Numbered from the stretch's first letter, positions 1 through 7,037 are shown. The stretch is DNA of 7,037 bases from a virus (IMGVR_UViG_2645727717_000001), one strand, 5' to 3'. The notes: generated by a model from the sequence alone, not told the origin. Translations and numbers: made by a program.

Positions 1-260
1 TTAACCTGGTAATATCTCTCTTGGGTGACTCTCCAAACATCCGCGAATATTCCCGACAGAAATGGGATAGCTTTCGTAACCGACAGCATAGGCTGCTGTG
101 GTGACATCGTAATGTTCATTCAGCATCTGTCGCCTGACTTCATTGAGACGTAGCCATTTCTGATACCAGAGTGGACTCATTCCCGCTTGATCCGTCCTTA
201 AATAAGTAACAGCACCCTCTGGTGTTTTCGTATGCAGTGTCTATGCGACAGACACTGCGC
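1..260 (-). pseudogene. AraC/XylS-family transcriptional regulator, C-terminal HTH region, decayed (at least two frameshifts); runs off the left edge of the window
   Basis: Minus-strand translation gives ...AGMSPLWYQKWLRLNEVRRQMLNEHYDVTTAAYAVGYES in one frame, then SHFCREYSRMFGESPKRDITRL in a second frame from ~pos 70; together these match the AraC-family signature (GxSPxxY...RL...VGYES.SxFSREYxRxFGxSP). A further frame break lies around 185-195 and a stop at 241-243. The second frame stays open past position 1. Confidence 0.65.
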
Positions 261-393
261 TCTTAGCATGGGGCAGGGAATAACCAGGCTATTTCTCCAT
301 GCACAGGCCAATTATGAAAGAGGAGAGGCTTAAGTTCTTGAACCCTGAACGAATAACGACTACCAGAAAAGCACTTCGCATCACTCAGACATG

Positions 394-421
394 ATTTAAC
401 ATAATATACATTATGCGCACC
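394..421 (-). other. dif: dif chromosome-dimer resolution site (XerC/XerD target), exact 28-mer
   Basis: Plus strand 394..421 is ATTTAACATAATATACATTATGCGCACC, the exact reverse complement of the canonical E. coli dif GGTGCGCATAA-TGTATA-TTATGTTAAAT. XerD arm = 394..404, central region = 405..410, XerC arm = 411..421. Confidence 0.9.
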
Positions 422-547
422 AATGGTAAGGATGGCAGAATCTGGCGGGAATCGTTGACACTTGGCGTCAACTGGCAACTATCGACAGTGATTCAAAATC
501 ATCCGTTTCTCCAGACGAATCAGAATCAAATGTCTGTCAGCAGTAAG

Positions 548-581
548 TGAACGGCCTGACCTCACCAATCAGGCCTGTTCA
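548..581. repeat. Hairpin / inverted repeat (12-bp stem with one bulge, 9-nt loop)
   Basis: TGAACGGCCTGA (548..559), loop CCTCACCAA (560..568), TCAGGCCTGTTCA (569..581). Core GGCCTGA/TCAGGCC is a perfect 7-bp pair. No T-run follows on either strand. Confidence 0.5.
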
Positions 582-719
582 TCCAGTTGCAGTTGGTAAA
601 TCTGTACCTGATACATGAAACCTTCCCCAGAAATACAGCCACAATGTCAGATAAGATGAACGCTGCCGCGCCGAATCAGCTATAACGCTCAAAATGAAAA
701 CTGTACGGCTTGGCCAACC

Positions 720-755
720 CCGGACAGCAACAAAACGAGTTTTGTCACTGACCGG
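720..755. repeat. 36-bp imperfect palindrome with symmetric mismatches
   Basis: CCGG-a-CAG-ca-ACAAAAC-ga-GTTTTGT-ca-CTG-a-CCGG. The arms pair except at symmetric 1-nt and 2-nt positions, which would give internal loops in a single-stranded fold. Confidence 0.45.
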
Positions 756-801
756 AGTTTACGATAACTTCGTAAGCATTAAATTTTAGCGGCTAAAAAG
801 T

Positions 802-1050
802 TCACCACCACCATGCAAACGGCTTGTTACTGACAGGAAATGCGATACCGTCAGCATCACGACCACGCAAGACCTGATTAAGAAGCTTTCTGACTTCACG
901 GCGCTCTGGCCGGGTCATCATCATATTGCGATACCAGGACGGTGATTTATCAAACCACCTGGAACAACTGGTAAAATGTGAACTAACACGACGGTAAGAC
1001 TTCATGCGACCACTGGGGAGTCGATCGCGCACCCTGCTTTTTACAGACAT
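802..1050 (-). CDS. Hypothetical small basic protein (82 aa), unknown function
   Basis: Only open frame >=60 aa in the region between gIV and dif. ATG at 1048..1050 with GAGG 8 nt upstream and a 21-bp palindrome just upstream. Arg-rich with a C-terminal WWW. No similarity recognised by eye; could be spurious. Confidence 0.3.
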   Translation of the reverse strand: MSVKSRVRDRLPSGRMKSYRRVSSHFTSCSRWFDKSPSWYRNMMMTRPERREVRKLLNQVLRGRDADGIAFPVSNKPFAWWW

Positions 1051-1059
1051 AAAAAACCT

Positions 1060-1080
1060 CTAAGTAATTGAATTACCTAG
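1060..1080. promoter_or_regulatory. Near-perfect 21-bp palindrome, candidate operator
   Basis: CTAAGTAATTgAATTACCTAG; core GTAATT/AATTAC is perfect around a single central base. Lies ~10 bp upstream of the ATG of the 802..1050 ORF on the minus strand. Confidence 0.4.
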
Positions 1081-1119
1081 AAGATGTCTTTCTGTTCATA
1101 TCCTGTCAGTTTTAAGGCC

Positions 1120-1200
1120 ATATAGAGGCTCCGTGGTGAAACGTAAAATCCGGCTCTTGATGTGGCCATACCGGGGCTTAACGCACCCGCCACGGCCCCA
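1120..1200 (-). other. GC-rich dyad-symmetry region immediately downstream of gIV (candidate terminator or packaging/origin hairpins)
   Basis: GGGGC...GCCCC and CCGTGG...CCACGG inverted repeats, two TGGCCA palindromes. Position corresponds to the start of the Ff intergenic region. No clear U-tract. Confidence 0.3.
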
Positions 1201-2466
1201 TCAAAGCGCGCGAATAATATGAGCGGTCAGCAGAACATACATAATGCGTTGCTCATTACTGTCAGCTTTACTCCTGAAAAGCCAGCCAATCACCGGAATT
1301 TTACTGATAAACGGTACAGAACGGTCAGCATTGCTGGATGATGAATCAATCAGCCCACCAAGTAAGAGCGTCTGGCCATCCTTAATCTGAACTGTTGTCT
1401 GTATCTGACGCTGGTTCGTAATAATATCAGATGCCTGGTCATCGTTGCTGATGGAATCAGCGCGGGTATCAATAGTAAGTACAAGCTGGCCGTTCCCCAT
1501 AACAACAGGCGTCACCTTCAGAGATACGCCAACATCATGACGTTCAATGGTCTGAAACGGATTATTTACCCCGGCAGATTCACCCGTAACTTTACCCGTG
1601 ATAAAGGGTACATTTTTACCAACAGAAATATAGCCTGTCTGACCAGACTGGGTAAGAATCCGGGGCGTTGAAATCACCTTAGACCGGGAGTTACTCTGCA
1701 CCGCACGCAGGGATACGGCCAGAACATTACCATCAAAAATGCCAAAAGAGCCGCCGGCAGTCGACAATGCGCTACCCAATGCTGAAGTATTAAAGCCCCC
1801 TGCTACTTTATGCCCGGATGCAGAACCGGCTGCAAACGACAAATCAACACCATCCGACAGACTGGTTTCAAACATCAGCGACTGAATCAAAACCTGATCG
1901 CGGGCAACATCCACTGAATTGATGAAATCGGAAAGGACGGGAAGCAGCTCATCAGGTGCGGAAACAATCAGGGAGTTATTGCCAGGATAATCCACAACAT
2001 TACCCCCGCCATTAGAATCCAGATAAATTTTAACCAGTTGCTGAACATCAGACGATCGAACTTTTGTCAGCTTAAAATTTCTGACAGTAAACTCCACTGG
2101 CGCTGGCTGATAAGATGGCTCAGACGGGAAAGAGTCATAAGACCGAATATCAGCATCATCAAGGTCTGACGCCATCTGTGATGGTAATTTTGACGGCAAA
2201 GAGACTACTGCAGGATTACCCGAAAGCATGACAAATCCGTTAGCATTCAGTACAGATTTGAAGAAACTATCAATATTTGTGGGATTAACATCAGCATTAA
2301 ATACCGTTACGGTTCCTTTAACATCAGGATTAACAATAACGGGCTTGCCAGTTTTTGATGAATACCACTGGACAAATGAGCGAACGGATGAATTATTCAG
2401 GTTAACAGTTTCAGCAGAAACGCAAAAAGAATAAGTGAATAAGATAGCAATGAAAAATAAACGCAT
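1201..2466 (-). CDS. IV: pIV outer-membrane secretin for phage extrusion (421 aa)
   Basis: Collinear similarity to M13 pIV from the signal peptide through the C-terminal ...YVLLTAHIIRAL (M13 ...YVLVKATIVRAL), including GTVTVF, GGSFGIFDGNVL, PFITGKVTGESAGVNNPFQTIER, QTLLLGGL. Start taken at the internal Met (MRLFFIAILF..., ATG 2464..2466) with AGGAG 9 nt upstream; the longer track ORF would overlap gI. Confidence 0.93.
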   Translation of the reverse strand: MRLFFIAILFTYSFCVSAETVNLNNSSVRSFVQWYSSKTGKPVIVNPDVKGTVTVFNADVNPTNIDSFFKSVLNANGFVMLSGNPAVVSLPSKLPSQMASDLDDADIRSYDSFPSEPSYQPAPVEFTVRNFKLTKVRSSDVQQLVKIYLDSNGGGNVVDYPGNNSLIVSAPDELLPVLSDFINSVDVARDQVLIQSLMFETSLSDGVDLSFAAGSASGHKVAGGFNTSALGSALSTAGGSFGIFDGNVLAVSLRAVQSNSRSKVISTPRILTQSGQTGYISVGKNVPFITGKVTGESAGVNNPFQTIERHDVGVSLKVTPVVMGNGQLVLTIDTRADSISNDDQASDIITNQRQIQTTVQIKDGQTLLLGGLIDSSSSNADRSVPFISKIPVIGWLFRSKADSNEQRIMYVLLTAHIIRAL

Positions 2467-2473
2467 AATAATA

Positions 2474-2848
2474 TTACTCCTGGCAGGTGATGTTTTGTAA
2501 ATAACGGCCTTTTCTGATAACAATTCGGCAGGCATCTTTAATATCAACAGAATAACCATCTTTAATTAAATCAAAATACTGGTACTTCATACCCTTAGCA
2601 TCAACAAACGTAACGGAAACATCAAAACCAAGTTGAGAGAAGGAATTAATTGATAGTCTCGGTAAATCGCTGGTACTGTCAGGAGTTACTGCCCTCACCT
2701 GTTCAGCATGAGCAGATTTAATAGCCGAAATCTCATCAGCATTCTTACCAGATTGTAGCCAGAAGCCAAGTCCAAGCCCCAATGCCAGAAATGAAAGCAT
2801 TAATATTAATCGGTTTGATTTTCGAAAGTAAATTTTCGTGAGGCGCAT
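2474..2848 (-). CDS. XI: pXI, in-frame internal start within gI (124 aa)
   Basis: Met241 of pI (MRLTKIYFRK...) aligns with the M13 pXI initiator Met241 (MKLTKIYLKK...) and is followed by a hydrophobic transmembrane stretch. ATG at 2846..2848. Confidence 0.5.
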   Translation of the reverse strand: MRLTKIYFRKSNRLILMLSFLALGLGLGFWLQSGKNADEISAIKSAHAEQVRAVTPDSTSDLPRLSINSFSQLGFDVSVTFVDAKGMKYQYFDLIKDGYSVDIKDACRIVIRKGRYLQNITCQE

Positions 2849-3568
2849 ATAATAATTAAACCCTTTGTTAACGGAAAACTGACCATGTGTAATAAATGGC
2901 GGCAAAAGCGAATAAGCACCATGCGGATAATTATCAGTAAAAGCCTGTTTTGTATTGTAGGCGGAATATAATGACTTTCCGGTATACATCCATTTATCAA
3001 CAGTTATTGAATTAACGTTGTCACCATATTTAACAATACCAAAGTGAACCTTTGGTAAAGAAAAACGAGCACCTGAAATTATATTCATGAAAGAACCAAT
3101 AAATGGGATGTTTAACTTATCTGAACGACGACAATAAACAACATGCTCCGCAAGCGCCAGCCGTGCTTGCTTGTCCATAATCGAAATATCCTGAATCAGA
3201 AAAATAATATCCCAGCCTAATTTACGGGCATGCAAAAACCAGTCAATAACTGGCTGTCTGTCTTTATCCCCCCACGAACGGGAATTAAACCAAGTCCCAC
3301 ATTCATCAAGAACCAGTAGACCATTACGTGATTCATCATAGGAAGTATTGCCTACACCAATAGCCAGCAGATCATTTAATGAAGGTTTGTCAGGGACACG
3401 AATCACGCGTGTTTTTTTCGCATAACGACCAACCATGGGCATATTATGTAGTTTAATATCTAGATTAGTGGCTACAGGACAGCCTTTAGCTAGTCTTTCC
3501 TGTATTCTGGCAACACTAACCAGTGTCTTACCTGAACCTAATTTCCCTGTTACGACATGAACCGTCAT
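2474..3568 (-). CDS. I: pI assembly ATPase (Zot-like), inner-membrane morphogenesis protein (364 aa)
   Basis: N-terminus MTVHVVTGKLGSGKTLVSV... closely matches M13 pI MAVYFVTGKLGSGKTLVSV.... Walker A GKLGSGKT at 3524..3547. Long identical runs (GLLVLDECGTWFN, QPVIDWFLHARKLGWDIIFL, DKQARLALAEHVVYCRR). RBS AAGGTGA upstream; the ATG abuts the gVI stop. Confidence 0.95.
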   Translation of the reverse strand: MTVHVVTGKLGSGKTLVSVARIQERLAKGCPVATNLDIKLHNMPMVGRYAKKTRVIRVPDKPSLNDLLAIGVGNTSYDESRNGLLVLDECGTWFNSRSWGDKDRQPVIDWFLHARKLGWDIIFLIQDISIMDKQARLALAEHVVYCRRSDKLNIPFIGSFMNIISGARFSLPKVHFGIVKYGDNVNSITVDKWMYTGKSLYSAYNTKQAFTDNYPHGAYSLLPPFITHGQFSVNKGFNYYMRLTKIYFRKSNRLILMLSFLALGLGLGFWLQSGKNADEISAIKSAHAEQVRAVTPDSTSDLPRLSINSFSQLGFDVSVTFVDAKGMKYQYFDLIKDGYSVDIKDACRIVIRKGRYLQNITCQE

Positions 3569-3910
3569 TCAAATCACCTTGTTTGCATAATCAAGGAATT
3601 TTTGTTTTAAATCGAAAACAAAAACGCTAATTCGAGTAATCATAATGACATTAACACAGGCCTGAAAATGGTCTGGTAAGACAGATGCAATTAAATGTGA
3701 AAAATCAGCAGGAAGGCCATTGTACATAACCTCAGCAAGATATTGCATTAAGAGAGTGACAGTTGTTGTAATTAATGCAACTAATGCTACAGCTATCAAT
3801 CCTGTTTTAGTCGCAAGGCGTGCGAGGAAGCTTGCCACATAGCCAATAAATAAAGGAACAAGCCCAATAAGAAAACGCAATAGTGCAGGAATACCTAATA
3901 ATAAAGGCAT
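3569..3910 (-). CDS. VI: pVI minor coat protein (113 aa)
   Basis: MPLLLGIPALLRFLIGL... vs M13 pVI MPVLLGIPLLLRFLGFL...; C-terminal FVFDLKQK vs FIFDVKQK. The ATG overlaps the gIII stop (TAATG). Confidence 0.9.
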   Translation of the reverse strand: MPLLLGIPALLRFLIGLVPLFIGYVASFLARLATKTGLIAVALVALITTTVTLLMQYLAEVMYNGLPADFSHLIASVLPDHFQACVNVIMITRISVFVFDLKQKFLDYANKVI

Positions 3911-5153
3911 TACTCACCTCCTTTACGAAGTAATGAGGTTAAAGACGTAAATACATACCAGAAGGTAAGGCAATAAAAAATCCATGAAAGCGCATCTTTG
4001 ATAGTAAGTAATTTATCGCATTCAATATCAATCTGATAAATTTCACCGGGGAAAATAACAAGTTCAGAACAACCATTACCATTAGGTAAACTAGGGAGCA
4101 TAGCACCTTTATTCAGGAATGCTTCCCATAAAGCACCATGAGAATCTTTAGCTATTCCTAATTCGGATTCAGCCAATGTTGAAGCACTGTCTAATTCGGA
4201 ATCCCCTTTCCCATAACGAGAATCACCGCCAGAAGGATCAGCAAAACGTCCGGCTCCGCGAGTAAGGTTATTTATAGCGTCACCAAGACGATTTATATTA
4301 TTTTTAGTCTGTTCATCAGCCGATTTTTTATCATCAGATGAGGTGTCTTTTTCTGTTAACTTATCATGAATCTCACTGGCCATTTTAGGTGAAGCACCTT
4401 CAATAGCTGACTGAATATCTCCTTTGGTAATACTTGAGCCATTACCACCTGAGTTACCGCCACCTGAGTTACCACCGCCTGTATCACCTCCTCCAGTATC
4501 ACCACCCCCCGTATCCCCGCCTCCAGTATCCCCACCATCGCCAGCAGGAGAAGAAGGCTTATCTGAAGGATCGGCTACGGTTCCGGTAGGCTTCCATGTC
4601 GCCGCACAAACAGTGCCATCACCCTGGCAAACAATGACGCCAGTGGCCTCATATTCACAACCGTTATAATAAATATAACGATCACCATCATAAGATAGAC
4701 ATTATTAAATACACCTTCTTCAGGAGGTTTAGCTTCACAAATTTCTTCAGGTGTAGGCTCGGAGGGTTTTTCATCAGGAATAGAACGCTGAATATCACCG
4801 ATAATATAAGCGGTTAAATTCCAGTATTTATCTTTCTGGCCCGGAGAGTCGCTGTAGGTACAAGCGTCAGAAAACACAAGACGGAATTCAGAGTTAGGCC
4901 ATACTCCCTCATAAGTTGGTTTAACCTGAGTAAAAACACCCTGAGCACTGTCTTTAGCCCCCTGACAGGCAGAAGCCTGCATAGCTGCATCAATATAATA
5001 AACAGTTTGTTTAGTGCCATCTTGGTTGGTTATTTGCTTACTTTCAGAATAGGCAGAGCTTTGAAAAGTAGATTTAGTAATGCTTTCCCATGAATCAGCA
5101 TGTGAAAAAGAAGAAATAAGAATAGCGGAAATAATTAATATTTTCCTTTTCAT
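3910..5153 (-). pseudogene. III: pIII adsorption / minor coat protein, split across two frames by an apparent 1-nt deletion near 4698
   Basis: Frame A (5153 -> stop 4575): signal peptide MKRKILIISAILISSFSHA, ~150-aa N-terminal domain, Pro/Glu-rich linker, ...[16 protein letters not shown], then nonsense. Frame B (open 4701 -> 3913): [39 protein letters not shown] (cf. M13 N1 DRYANYEGCLWNATGVVVCTGDETQCYGTWVPIG), Gly-rich linker, C-terminal domain ending ...LPSLP...IDCDKL...FWYVFTSL. Span is 1244 nt, i.e. 3n+2. Confidence 0.8.
4444..4533 (-). repeat. Six imperfect 15-bp tandem repeats encoding the pIII Gly-rich linker
   Basis: Minus strand GGGGATACTGGAGGC / GGGGATACGGGGGGT / GGTGATACTGGAGGA / GGTGATACAGGCGGT / GGTAACTCAGGTGGC / GGTAACTCAGGTGGT, encoding (GGDTG)x4 then (GGNSG)x2. 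Confidence 0.8.
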
Positions 5154-5160
5154 AATAACC

Positions 5161-5190
5161 CGCTTTAATAAAGGGGCAACGAGTGCCCCT
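5161..5190 (-). terminator. Rho-independent terminator between gVIII and gIII
   Basis: Stem AGGGGCA (5172..5178) / TGCCCCT (5184..5190) with 5-nt loop; on the transcribed minus strand it is followed by TTTATT. Same position as the central terminator of Ff phages. Confidence 0.6.
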
Positions 5191-5199
5191 GAGTGAATT

Positions 5200-5442
5200 T
5201 TAAACTGCTTTCGAAGAGAACTTTTTAAACAAACGAATGGCAAGACCCGCACCAACGACAGCGACAACAGCAGGCCATACTTTTGCAATAAGATCGTTTG
5301 CCTGAGTCAGCAGTGAATCCATTGCCTGACCTGCATAGTCAGTGCTACCCGTTGCGCCATCAGCAGCAAAACAACTTGCAGAAACAAAAAGTGCGGTTGA
5401 AGCCACAGCAATTTTAGATTTAATAACAGAAATGACTTTCAT
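5200..5442 (-). CDS. VIII: pVIII major coat protein precursor (80 aa)
   Basis: Signal peptide MKVISVIKSKIAVASTALFVSASCFA, acidic mature N-terminus ADGATG..., hydrophobic core, basic C-terminus LFKKFSSKAV (M13: LFKKFTSKAS). RBS GGAG 9 nt upstream. Confidence 0.93.
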   Translation of the reverse strand: MKVISVIKSKIAVASTALFVSASCFAADGATGSTDYAGQAMDSLLTQANDLIAKVWPAVVAVVGAGLAIRLFKKFSSKAV

Positions 5443-5471
5443 ATAAATAACTCCATTTAAGTTAGGTTTTA

Positions 5472-5567
5472 TTACATTAATCGGTCAGATAATGTTTTAA
5501 ACGAACCGACCGCATAGAAAAGGGCAAATCCTAAGGTATAAGCCCCGAAGAAATACACAATATACAT
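5472..5567 (-). CDS. IX: pIX minor coat protein (31 aa)
   Basis: Hand-translated MYIVYFFGAYTLGFALFYAVGSFKTLSDRLM; resembles M13 pIX (MSVLVYSFASFVLGW...TRLM...). ATG overlaps the gVII stop (TAATG). Below the ORF-track length cutoff. Confidence 0.7.
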   Translation of the reverse strand: MYIVYFFGAYTLGFALFYAVGSFKTLSDRLM

Positions 5568-5653
5568 TAACGAATGACACCTGCGGTAATAGCACCAAGA
5601 CCAAAAGAAATAACAATGCCGGATGCTATTAATATTTGAATAACATCATCCAT
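5567..5653 (-). CDS. VII: pVII minor coat protein (28 aa)
   Basis: Hand-translated MDDVIQILIASGIVISFGLGAITAGVIR; resembles M13 pVII C-terminal half (...QISVVLCFALGIIAGGQR). ATG is 2 nt after the gV-analog stop; AAAGG upstream. Confidence 0.65.
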   Translation of the reverse strand: MDDVIQILIASGIVISFGLGAITAGVIR

Positions 5654-5655
5654 AA

Positions 5656-5973
5656 TTAACCTTTTATTTCAGTGATCCCACCATCTGATGAAATATTATA
5701 AGTCACACCTTCTCTACCCTCCATTGACCAGACACGAACATATACAGGGATTTGAACTAATTTCCCCGTAAAACTATTGGCTTGATTCATGACTCCGGCG
5801 TTCACAAGGGACTGTGATACACGAATAATTATTTGGTCTTGCTTAGTACCGCCAAAACCATCAGGGATCTCTAAACCGATACCAATTTCATTGTAATAGC
5901 CCTGACCATTGACTTTATTACGCTGACGAGCACCAAGCATTTTACCTTTTACAAAAAGACCATAATTAGACAT
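5656..5973 (-). CDS. Putative ssDNA-binding protein, gV positional analog (105 aa); no resemblance to Ff pV
   Basis: Sits between the replication initiator and gVII exactly where gV lies in Ff. AAGGAG RBS 7 nt upstream of the ATG. Function assigned by position only. Confidence 0.5.
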   Translation of the reverse strand: MSNYGLFVKGKMLGARQRNKVNGQGYYNEIGIGLEIPDGFGGTKQDQIIIRVSQSLVNAGVMNQANSFTGKLVQIPVYVRVWSMEGREGVTYNISSDGGITEIKG

Positions 5974-5984
5974 ATCACGCTCCT

Positions 5985-7037
5985 TTAATGCCAGTTACTG
6001 GCATGTGAAATACGGTTGTAATCAAAAATAAAACCTTTCTCATAAACCCATGTAGGGATTTGGGCTGGTTTAGCTTCAAGTGTTCTTACTAATGGAACAA
6101 CATTATTTGAATCAGGGGATTCACAATAAAAATTAATATCTATCCCGAAAGACAATAATTCTTTTCGGTGCCTGTAAAATGTTGGCTTTGGAAGCATTTC
6201 TTTCATGTTTGCGCCCTGCTTCCACAGTAAATATGTTGATTGTATTTTTCTCGGCAGTTTAACTATTTTTTCATCGGTCAAAATGGCATTTTGATTCATT
6301 TCTATTCTCCCTACATATTCAGAGAATAATTTGTTTGGAGTATCGATATTCCAGTTACTGCCAAGCGTAAGGTTTAAGTCAATTAATTCTGTTGTTCTTA
6401 GCGTCAATTCAATTCGTAATTTATCTTTAGACCAGTCAAGTAAGCCAGCTTTAACAAACTCTTCTGCTATCTGGTGTCCTTTTTTACCAGAAATATGCTC
6501 ATCATATTTTGAATAAAATTTCAGGCTCCACCGCCGGGAGTTTTTCCCTAAGTAAACAGTTCCACCTTTACCACAGGCGCGACCATGGCGAGTTTTAGCC
6601 TTGAATTCTGCGGCATATAGCCATGCGCGGACATTTTCCAGCGTTGATAATGAATACATGTAGTTAATATCAATGCGTGAGATCTTAAATTGCCCTGCCA
6701 TTACCTGACGATAGGATGGTAGATCATGAGGAATATGAAGTAATGCCAATATTCTTGCGTAAGCGGTTAATACCAGCCCCTGCAAATCATCGGAGCCAAT
6801 AACAGAATGCCCCTGAAGAAATTTTGACGGATTTCCGTCAATATAAAGATGAGTTGCCCGGCCCTCCCCGTCTGATCCAACAGATCGTACTTTCATTGTG
6901 GATTCGTATGAACCGCGAACGGTCAACCGCTTTACTGTTTCCCACTCCACTGCACCGTCAGCATCAACGCTGACGACACTACCGGCCGGTAACGGTCGGT
7001 GTGTGCAAGGAAGAATTCCGGTAAACCAGTCGATCAT
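5985..7037 (-). CDS. II: Rolling-circle replication initiator, gII equivalent (350 aa), likely of the RstA / Phage_CRI type rather than Ff pII
   Basis: Large ORF upstream of the gV analog beginning MIDWFTGILP...; no collinear similarity to M13 pII beyond MID. The ATG is the last 3 nt of the window, so an upstream extension cannot be excluded. Family assignment is from memory of N-terminal motifs. Confidence 0.75.
   Translation of the reverse strand: MIDWFTGILPCTHRPLPAGSVVSVDADGAVEWETVKRLTVRGSYESTMKVRSVGSDGEGRATHLYIDGNPSKFLQGHSVIGSDDLQGLVLTAYARILALLHIPHDLPSYRQVMAGQFKISRIDINYMYSLSTLENVRAWLYAAEFKAKTRHGRACGKGGTVYLGKNSRRWSLKFYSKYDEHISGKKGHQIAEEFVKAGLLDWSKDKLRIELTLRTTELIDLNLTLGSNWNIDTPNKLFSEYVGRIEMNQNAILTDEKIVKLPRKIQSTYLLWKQGANMKEMLPKPTFYRHRKELLSFGIDINFYCESPDSNNVVPLVRTLEAKPAQIPTWVYEKGFIFDYNRISHASNWH

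Follow-up and report, generated by a model that had tools for sequence, protein, structure and literature searches.

The dif-proximal end of an inovirus prophage of published type, very probably integrated by exploiting XerC and XerD, recombinases of its host

The stretch of DNA analysed here (IMGVR_UViG_2645727717_000001, 7,037 nucleotides; hereafter the window) joins host-type DNA to the genes of a filamentous phage (inovirus) at the recombination site dif. Its minus strand carries, within 1201–7037, the inovirus series gII, gX, gV, gVII, gIX, gVIII, gIII, gVI, gI and gIV, all of which except gX are supported by Pfam and PHROGs matches, with gI assigned to the Zot family and gIV to the secretins. 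The window is very probably the dif-proximal end of an integrated inovirus prophage that exploits host XerC/XerD, a type that has been published and is ordinary for the field. An exact dif beside inovirus genes marks a Xer-exploiting prophage, which is a known class and not a new phenomenon. An earlier reading of this DNA without database searches (the sequence-only reading) had held that an integrated coliphage of the IKe/I2-2 type would be unusual. This did not hold, as UPφ (2020), CUS-1 (2002) and Ypfφ are all published; CUS-1, from E. coli O18:K1:H7, and Ypfφ, from Yersinia pestis, were described before UPφ (PMC4266046).

The 28-mer GGTGCGCATAATGTATATTATGTTAAAT, which is dif as published for E. 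coli K-12 and Y. pestis CO92 (PMC2731167), is present in the window as one exact copy, at 394–421 on the minus strand. As a control for chance, none of 200 dinucleotide-preserving shuffles contained a match, even with up to three mismatches allowed. In plus-strand order, the XerD arm occupies 394–404, the centre 405–410 and the XerC arm 411–421, with host DNA (1–393) adjoining the XerD arm and the phage adjoining the XerC arm. The sequence-only reading had proposed an exact E. coli dif at this position, its XerC arm facing the phage and its XerD arm the host, with an AraC-family pseudogene of host type alongside. The unique match and the arm coordinates confirmed the site and its orientation, and the pseudogene is consistent with a sub-threshold HTH_18 match (Table 1) and with the RefSeq label for the remnant at 1–186, a helix-turn-helix (HTH) pseudogene that is both frameshifted and incomplete.

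The far end was read in the nearest complete genome, E. coli SCPM-O-B-12142 (NZ_CP144928.1), which matches the window over its full length with three differences. These are a non-coding substitution at 477, a substitution at 5270 that alters residue 58 in the precursor of the major coat protein (Ala in the window, Val in SCPM-O-B-12142), and one base missing near 4694. In that genome, the element extends beyond 7037 to form a unit of 9,078 bp, and the genes in its remaining part, for a repressor and two accessory proteins, lie on the opposite strand. Two copies of the unit, with no differences between them, stand in tandem, flanked by dif and the HTH pseudogene on one side and by hipA on the other. 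A full dif is found at the left site only. The copy-to-copy and hipA-side junctions are alike and read, on the minus strand, GGTGCGCATAA-TGTACGACTCG-TTATGTTGAAA, followed in both cases by a GC-rich stem-loop and then by CTTTAGCATAA-CGTCA-TTGTGCGAACC. At the hipA side, this corresponds to the host XerC arm GGTGCGCATAA, the phage centre TGTACGACTCG and a XerD-like arm, after which hipA follows. The degenerate site predicted for the far end was thus found, and the geometry proposed for XerCD integration, with dif regenerated on one side, was borne out at the level of sequence in the nearest complete genome.

The empty site was rebuilt by joining 200 nucleotides (nt) from the left of the array, with dif at their end, to 200 nt from its right. 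The product was 100% identical to K-12 MG1655 over the 400 nt, and it was at least 80% covered at one place in 3,170 of the 5,426 complete E. coli genomes that served as the sample for all counts of prevalence. As the host flanks joined without the copies reproduce the K-12 site, the insertion is exact. The crossover is confined to the 15 nt common to dif and the phage attachment site (attP), at 407–421, which read GGTGCGCATAATGTA on the minus strand.

These data bear on whether the phage might lie in an island merely beside dif, or might owe its arrival to a homologous or illegitimate event in which Xer had no part. Insertion sequence (IS) elements are close by, with an IS3 at the SCPM-O-B-12142 locus and an IS1 within the unit of a second relative, GCA_977064715.1, and homologous recombination is allowed for in the addition of copies to an existing array (Ypfφ review, PMC4266046). 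However, the insertion is base-exact at the border between XerC arm and centre, and removing the copies restores the empty site perfectly. Moreover, E. coli, Klebsiella spallanzanii, Phytobacter and Y. pestis all have the same junction, in each case beside a host flank of their own. The stretch 422–1200, which the sequence-only reading conceded could prove to be ordinary host sequence, is part of the tandemly repeated unit and present in 119 of the 5,426 genomes; being absent from 98% of them, it was ruled out as ordinary host DNA. A mere island beside dif and an origin unrelated to Xer are accordingly considered exceedingly improbable.

In Ff-like phages, the virion strand is the coding strand. 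The virion (+) strand here corresponds to the minus strand of the window, and on it the 94-nt attP comprises two inverted dif-like sites, 34 nt apart, with spacers of 11 and 5 nt: GGTGCGCATAA-11 nt-TTATGTTGAAA, with GGTTCGCACAA-5 nt-TTATGCTAAAG as its partner. Compared with dif, the phage site has a perfect XerC arm and a XerD-like arm matching at 9 of 11 positions, and its centre TGTACGACTCG shares with the dif centre TGTATA only TGTA, next to the XerC arm. The (+) strand of attP folds at −28.6 kcal/mol (z −7.0), with the XerC arms paired, the XerD arms paired and the centres open. Across an alignment in which E. coli, Salmonella, Y. pestis, Photorhabdus and Brenneria contribute eight distinct attP sequences, this hairpin model pairs 93.6% of cells, compared with 35–49% in registers slid by one to three columns, and includes four compensatory pairs, one of them within the XerD arm. 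The attP of the tandem junction is also present, unchanged, in circular records of whole phages.

The 94 nt of attP are identical to those of Ypfφ in Y. pestis. Ypfφ and CUS-1 are classed as CTXφ-type IMEX elements, which integrate as (+) single-stranded DNA (ssDNA) (PMC4246890; PMC3089051), and Ypfφ is reported to carry its XerC/XerD sites as an inverted pair, to leave dif intact at its 3' end and to form arrays of two to four copies (PMC4266046). In CTXφ, the centres of attP1 (12 bp) and attP2 (5–7 bp) render both sites inactive as duplexes; XerC alone swaps one pair of strands between dif and the folded (+) strand, replication finishes the reaction, and the outcome is irreversible, homology with dif being required only beside the XerC arm (PMC4246890). 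Since published work groups Ypfφ, the owner of an identical attP, with CTXφ, a CTXφ-like mechanism is the most likely, and by this analogy it is highly probable that XerC catalysed the integration of folded (+)ssDNA at dif.

From the same analogy, we infer a course of events as follows. On the (+) strand, the paired inverted sites would form a forked hairpin in which a XerC arm and a XerD arm surround an unpaired centre. XerC would then swap one strand pair with the chromosomal dif at the arm/centre border, and replication would turn the intermediate into a prophage. The hipA side would be left with a dead hybrid site, made of the host XerC arm and the phage centre, and the opposite side would regain an intact dif and with it chromosome-dimer resolution. 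As the phage sites lack a workable spacer when in duplex form, integration should be irreversible. Tandem arrays would arise from repeated integration, and new phage DNA would be produced by gII-driven rolling-circle replication across two copies.

A route of the VGJφ type would likewise regenerate dif on one side and leave a hybrid site on the other. In this case, a single dif-like attP would mediate recombination of the duplex replicative form with dif, and the prophage would be reversible and excisable. Elements of this type are common among filamentous phages (PMC4246890), and the perfect XerC arm and 9/11 XerD-like arm of the phage site are compatible with it. Its hallmark, however, is a single duplex attP of about 28–29 bp with a centre of functional length, whereas the XerC–XerD spacing of the duplex is 11 nt here, against the 6–7 nt needed, and that of the second site is 5 nt. 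Such spacers are given as the reason why attP1 and attP2 of CTXφ are inactive as duplexes, and Ypfφ/CUS-1, whose attP is identical, are placed in the CTX type (PMC4246890). As the conserved inverted partner site and the hairpin would also have no role in it, the VGJφ-type route is regarded as very unlikely.

Several points weigh against integration of the CTXφ type as set out above. The close relatives SCPM-O-B-12142 and GCA_977064715.1, and not the window's own genome, supplied the far junction and the tandem structure, and catalysis, the ssDNA substrate and dependence on xerC/xerD rest on analogy. All four compensatory changes come from Brenneria alone, and the alignment comprises just eight distinct rows. 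Furthermore, incoming Ypfφ often inserts between resident copies, through an imperfect site or by homologous recombination (Ypfφ review, PMC4266046), so the classical model is not the whole story for array growth. Finally, tandem arrays, and not true episomes or replicative forms, may have given rise to the circular "plasmid" records during assembly.

Two such records, filed as small circular plasmids, have an unintegrated attP: Salmonella NZ_CP140410.1 (7,938 bp, UPφ-type), which carries a Doc-family toxin gene as cargo, and E. coli NZ_CP128883.1 (9,565 bp, CUS-type). At the junctions of Brenneria alni (13–106 and 9051–9144), the XerC arm is GGTTCGCATAA and the hairpin partner arm is its perfect complement. 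This arm is that of the dif site of Erwinia carotovora (Pectobacterium), a fellow soft-rot enterobacterium, and differs from the E. coli arm (PMC2731167). At these integrated junctions, the arm could stem from the dif of the host and not from the phage.

The sequence-only reading had also described the morphogenesis gene set as complete, which was not upheld, since gIII is frameshifted in the window. A 1-nt deletion near 4694, identified by comparison with the RefSeq record and by prefix analysis, shifts the frame after residue 153 of 414. The N-terminal open reading frame (ORF; 4575–5153) thus encodes 192 amino acids (aa), of which 153 are native and 39 out of frame, and the remainder (3910–4693) lies in a different frame. 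The pilus-binding and TolA-binding domains match the IKe g3p structures with PDB codes 4eo0 (1e-27) and 4eo1 (1e-25), respectively, and the break falls within the latter. Of the domains of g3p, the truncated product would retain only the one for pilus binding, with the TolA-binding domain, glycine linker and C-terminal domain all lost, and the copy in the window is probably non-infectious on its own.

The exact 192-aa product was found on 82 contigs among NCBI, ENA and Logan assemblies, and the intact 414-aa allele of SCPM-O-B-12142 on 38. The window differs from the dif-proximal copy of GCA_977064715.1 (CDRULO010000001.1, 2384219–2414650) by one mismatch and no gap. Sequencing error was rejected on these two grounds, the 82 contigs stemming from several sources, and the frameshifted form is a circulating allele. 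GCA_977064715.1 contains two tandem copies of 9,853 bp each, both with the gIII frameshift and with an IS1 between the genes for the 369-aa and 140-aa proteins. As both copies share both lesions, duplication, or homogenisation by gene conversion, came after both.

The frameshifted prophage might still spread in infectious virions by means of an intact gIII in another copy, a co-resident helper inovirus or translational recoding. Arrays mixing CUS-type and UPφ-type copies exist in E. coli F11, and helper-supplied g3p has been proposed for UPφ with a gIII nonsense mutation (PMC7307601). As 82 contigs and both members of a tandem pair carry the allele, it has been propagated and duplicated. Nevertheless, clonal host descent could explain the contigs and unequal crossing-over the duplication. 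Both GCA_977064715.1 copies are frameshifted, no second inovirus was seen within the 20-kb loci, and the frameshift site TCTATCTTATG includes no evident slippery sequence. Continued infectious spread is thus judged unlikely. A somewhat less remote, though still doubtful, view is that the array has been domesticated, being retained and amplified by the host for its cargo or for an effect at dif and not as a virus, because the gIII frameshift would kill infectivity and yet 82 contigs and both tandem copies, each with IS1, have the allele. Under this view, and with the same reserve, the cargo might be orf82, which is under purifying selection, together with the 140-aa and 369-aa membrane proteins. 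The intact gIII of SCPM-O-B-12142 and the frameshifted form of the window's lineage constitute a natural allele pair, which could bear on whether such prophages are retained for host benefit.

The phage was compared with UPφ and Ypfφ at their chromosomal loci, and facts on CUS-1 were taken from the review by Derbise & Carniel. Megablast of the whole window against the phage collection returned I2-2 alone, with 77% identity over 421 nt of gI. By sequence comparison, the phage is a mosaic, in which the segment from gVII to gIV is of the UPφ/Lineavirus (IKe, I2-2) type, and the CUS-1/Ypfφ type is represented by gII, gV, the repressor, orf82 and attP. Thus, the morphogenesis module from gVII to gIV shows 82–96% aa identity to UPφ of E. 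coli ECONIH2 and 50–73% to I2-2, and is unrelated to CUS/Ypfφ except for gIV (27%). Conversely, gII and gV are both 96% identical to Ypfφ and to the CUS-type phage of F11, against 87% and 93%, respectively, to UPφ. The repressor is 99% and orf82 82% identical to their Ypfφ and F11 CUS-type counterparts, and neither has a UPφ homologue. Of the accessory proteins, that of 140 aa is 98% identical to an ECONIH2 protein, and that of 369 aa is identical to a UTI89 protein, with a variant in RS218, the original host strain of CUS-1.

With UPφ, the phage shares an IKe/I2-2-like core order, integration at dif next to hipA as tandem repeats, and a nearly identical attP (ECONIH2, CP014667, triple array). 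It differs in lacking h1 and h2, the group-defining genes between dif and gIV, as well as h3; tblastn of ECONIH2 h1 (77 aa) and h2 (102 aa) against the unit gave no match, and the CUS-type orf82 region is found there instead. Its core proteins are 82–96% identical to those of UPφ, compared with the at least 98% reported among UPφ members (PMC7307601), and its unit spans 9,078 bp, against 7,560 bp in UPφ. CUS-1 and Ypfφ resemble it in integration at dif, in the intact dif after the secretin end and in tandem arrays (PMC4266046). Their virion and assembly module is unrelated, with only gIV detectable, and the other CUS-type morphogenesis and secretion genes (homologues of YPO2276–YPO2280) had no match in the unit. 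Where the window phage has IKe-like gVI and gIII, CUS-type phages encode a DUF2523 protein and a putative adsorption protein of 520 aa. Judged by gene content, the phage is therefore not strictly a UPφ, because h1 and h2 are missing, nor a CUS-1/Ypfφ phage, because the virion module differs.

The likeness to CTXφ resides in a pair of inverted dif-like sites whose spacers are unusable (11 and 5 nt here, against 12 and 5–7 bp in CTXφ), dif homology only beside the XerC arm, regeneration of dif on one side, tandem arrays, the lack of an integrase, and a divergent repressor adjoining gII. CTXφ differs in its host (Vibrio cholerae) and dif, in the distance between its sites (90 bp, against 34 nt here) and in its toxin genes, which the window phage lacks, and the integration behaviour of the latter is predicted from its sequence. 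The window phage also has its own secretin, gIV, which CTXφ is not known to have. With IKe and I2-2, it shares gene order, 50–73% aa identity in the morphogenesis proteins and a hairpin resembling a packaging signal at the end of gIV, and, with IKe, the order of pilus-binding and TolA-binding domains in g3p. IKe and I2-2 have no dif-like sites, repressor or accessory genes and are non-integrating and episomal (PMC7307601), and their gII and gV are only 57% and 41% identical to those of the window phage.

UPφ (UPφ901) was reported as related to IKe/I2-2, with Ypfφ-like gII and gV and tandem repeats at dif (Shapiro & Putonti 2020, PMC7307601). It was found in 189 of 12,401 E. coli assemblies, as well as in Salmonella, Klebsiella, Citrobacter and Yersinia, and its authors suspected module exchange from the similarity of gII and gV alone (PMC7307601). 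ECONIH2, the named example of that paper, is among the matches to the window. In our sample, at least 80% of the window was present in 51 genomes, the gII–gV module in 160 (about 3%, with a median of two copies) and the attP junction in 161. Four other complete genomes contain relatives that are about 90% identical and have the same layout. The locus shows that a Lineavirus-type virion module and a CUS-1/Ypfφ-type module for replication, immunity and attP are exchangeable, and arrays mixing CUS and UPφ copies at dif, as in F11, are a plausible setting for the recombination that makes such mosaics. Some modest extra interest lies in this structure and in the widespread gIII-frameshifted allele. 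Modest fitness effects have been reported for CUS-1 and Ypfφ in infection models (PMC4266046), so the shared accessory genes are candidates for that effect.

The features of the window are collected in Table 1.

Table 1. Features annotated in the window, ordered by position (identities are at the amino-acid level).
Feature	Position	Strand	Basis
Host chromosomal flank	1–393		Identical in prophage-free genomes, including K-12 MG1655
AraC-type HTH pseudogene remnant	1–186	minus	HTH_18 match, E 1e-5, under the Pfam cut-off
Intact dif, attR of the prophage array	394–421	minus	Exact match and comparison of all junctions
Non-coding dif-proximal phage end, CUS-1/Ypfφ type	422–801	minus	blastn to F11 and Y. 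pestis
orf82, conserved basic 82-aa protein	802–1050	minus	82% to Y. pestis and F11 copies
Terminator-like hairpin with T-run, just upstream of orf82	1057–1083	minus	12-pair stem and TTTTTT; consensus match only
Candidate packaging (morphogenetic) signal, long imperfect hairpin at the gIV 3' end	about 1145–1207	minus	Fold and alignment
gIV, outer-membrane secretin, 421 aa	1201–2466	minus	Secretin 7e-45, N0 and Secretin_N; 93% to ECONIH2 UPφ, 73% to I2-2, 27% to Ypfφ
gI, assembly ATPase of the Zot family, 364 aa	2474–3568	minus	Zot 1e-38; 94% to UPφ, 63% to I2-2
gVI, minor coat protein, 113 aa	3569–3910	minus	DUF5455, phrog_1944 "minor head protein"; 96% to UPφ
gIII, IKe-type attachment protein, frameshifted	3910–5153	minus	IKe g3p domain matches
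Candidate terminator between gVIII and gIII, GC-rich hairpin AGGGGCACTCGTTGCCCCT then T-rich run	5162–5199	minus	Read directly
gVIII, major coat protein, 80-aa precursor	5200–5442	minus	Phage_coatGP8 1e-19; 84% to UPφ
gIX, minor coat protein, 31 aa	5472–5567	minus	phrog_28333 6e-10; 90% to UPφ
gVII, minor coat protein, 28 aa	5567–5653	minus	Inovirus_G7P_2 3.5e-11
gV, ssDNA-binding protein, 105 aa, Ypfφ/CUS-1 type	5656–5973	minus	Putative_G5P 1.6e-51; 96% to Y. pestis Ypfφ, 41% to I2-2
gX, possible product of an in-frame internal ATG at 6299	5985–6299	minus	Start read from sequence
gII, rolling-circle replication initiator, 350 aa, Ypfφ/CUS-1 type	5985–7037	minus	Phage_CRI 2e-72, G2P_X_C 7e-33, phrog_17464 over residues 247–346; 96% to Ypfφ, 87% to UPφ

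The hairpin between gVIII and gIII is in the same position as the gVIII terminator of Ff and is a presumed terminator, for which the consensus scan made no call. DNA folding of 1045–1215 yielded a z-score of −4.7 for the hairpin at the end of gIV, which aligns with the annotated morphogenetic signal of I2-2 at the equivalent location and may likewise function in packaging. The very basic, Trp-rich product of orf82 is the counterpart of the attR-adjacent ORF of CUS-1/Ypfφ. The ratio of non-synonymous to synonymous substitution rates (dN/dS) against two homologues is 0.16–0.19, so that orf82 is a real gene under purifying selection. No Pfam family matched orf82, and a PADLOC match to JetB (E 2.5e-4, 17.8 bits) was judged to be noise. 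Within the dif-proximal end, 422–618 is 97% identical to CUS-type and Ypfφ prophages by blastn, and of the 65-aa ORF that CUS-type phages have, which is not intact in 422–801, tblastn gave only 8-aa fragments.

The genes beyond the window, on the opposite strand, encode an RstR-like HTH repressor of 148 aa and the 140-aa and 369-aa accessory proteins. Neither accessory protein received a functional assignment from Pfam or PHROGs, the 369-aa protein having only sub-threshold noise in Pfam, and PADLOC gave no credible defence-system match for either of them or for orf82. No recombinase or integrase was present among the Pfam or PHROGs matches across the 9,078-bp unit, in which these two proteins are functionally unassigned, and Rfam returned no family at gathering thresholds. 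On the host side, just beyond the window, an IS3-family element splits a fimbrial usher gene at 9161–11723 of the SCPM-O-B-12142 locus; the usher ORF (382 aa) is unbroken there in GCA_977064715.1.

The dif array of E. coli F11 (NZ_CP076123.1, locus 1900–22836) consists of two CUS-type copies followed by one of the UPφ type. The chromosome of E. coli EC5502 (NZ_CP092647.1, around 4936339) has 15 places that match the window, and the per-genome maxima were 13 copies of gII–gV and 16 of attP; some strains may hold very long arrays. In PLSDB, 441 plasmids were matched, mostly conjugative plasmids of E. coli and most of them through 72 nt homologous (about 93%) to the half of attP that lies inward. 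This stretch includes the dif-like site with the 5-nt spacer and the GC hairpin, lacks the outer XerC-arm site, and may be the remnant of an inovirus end. In pAPEC-1 (NC_011980.1, IncF), the attP-like stretch (3004–3066) directly follows a gene of the STM4504/CBY_0614 family. The phage family is also found on contigs of metagenome-assembled genomes labelled "Candidatus Nanosynbacter" (JARKOR010000214.1) and "Aerococcus sp.". In the former, E. coli-type flanks from the hipA side and the HTH-pseudogene side surround dif, so that it is almost certainly a misbinned E. coli contig.

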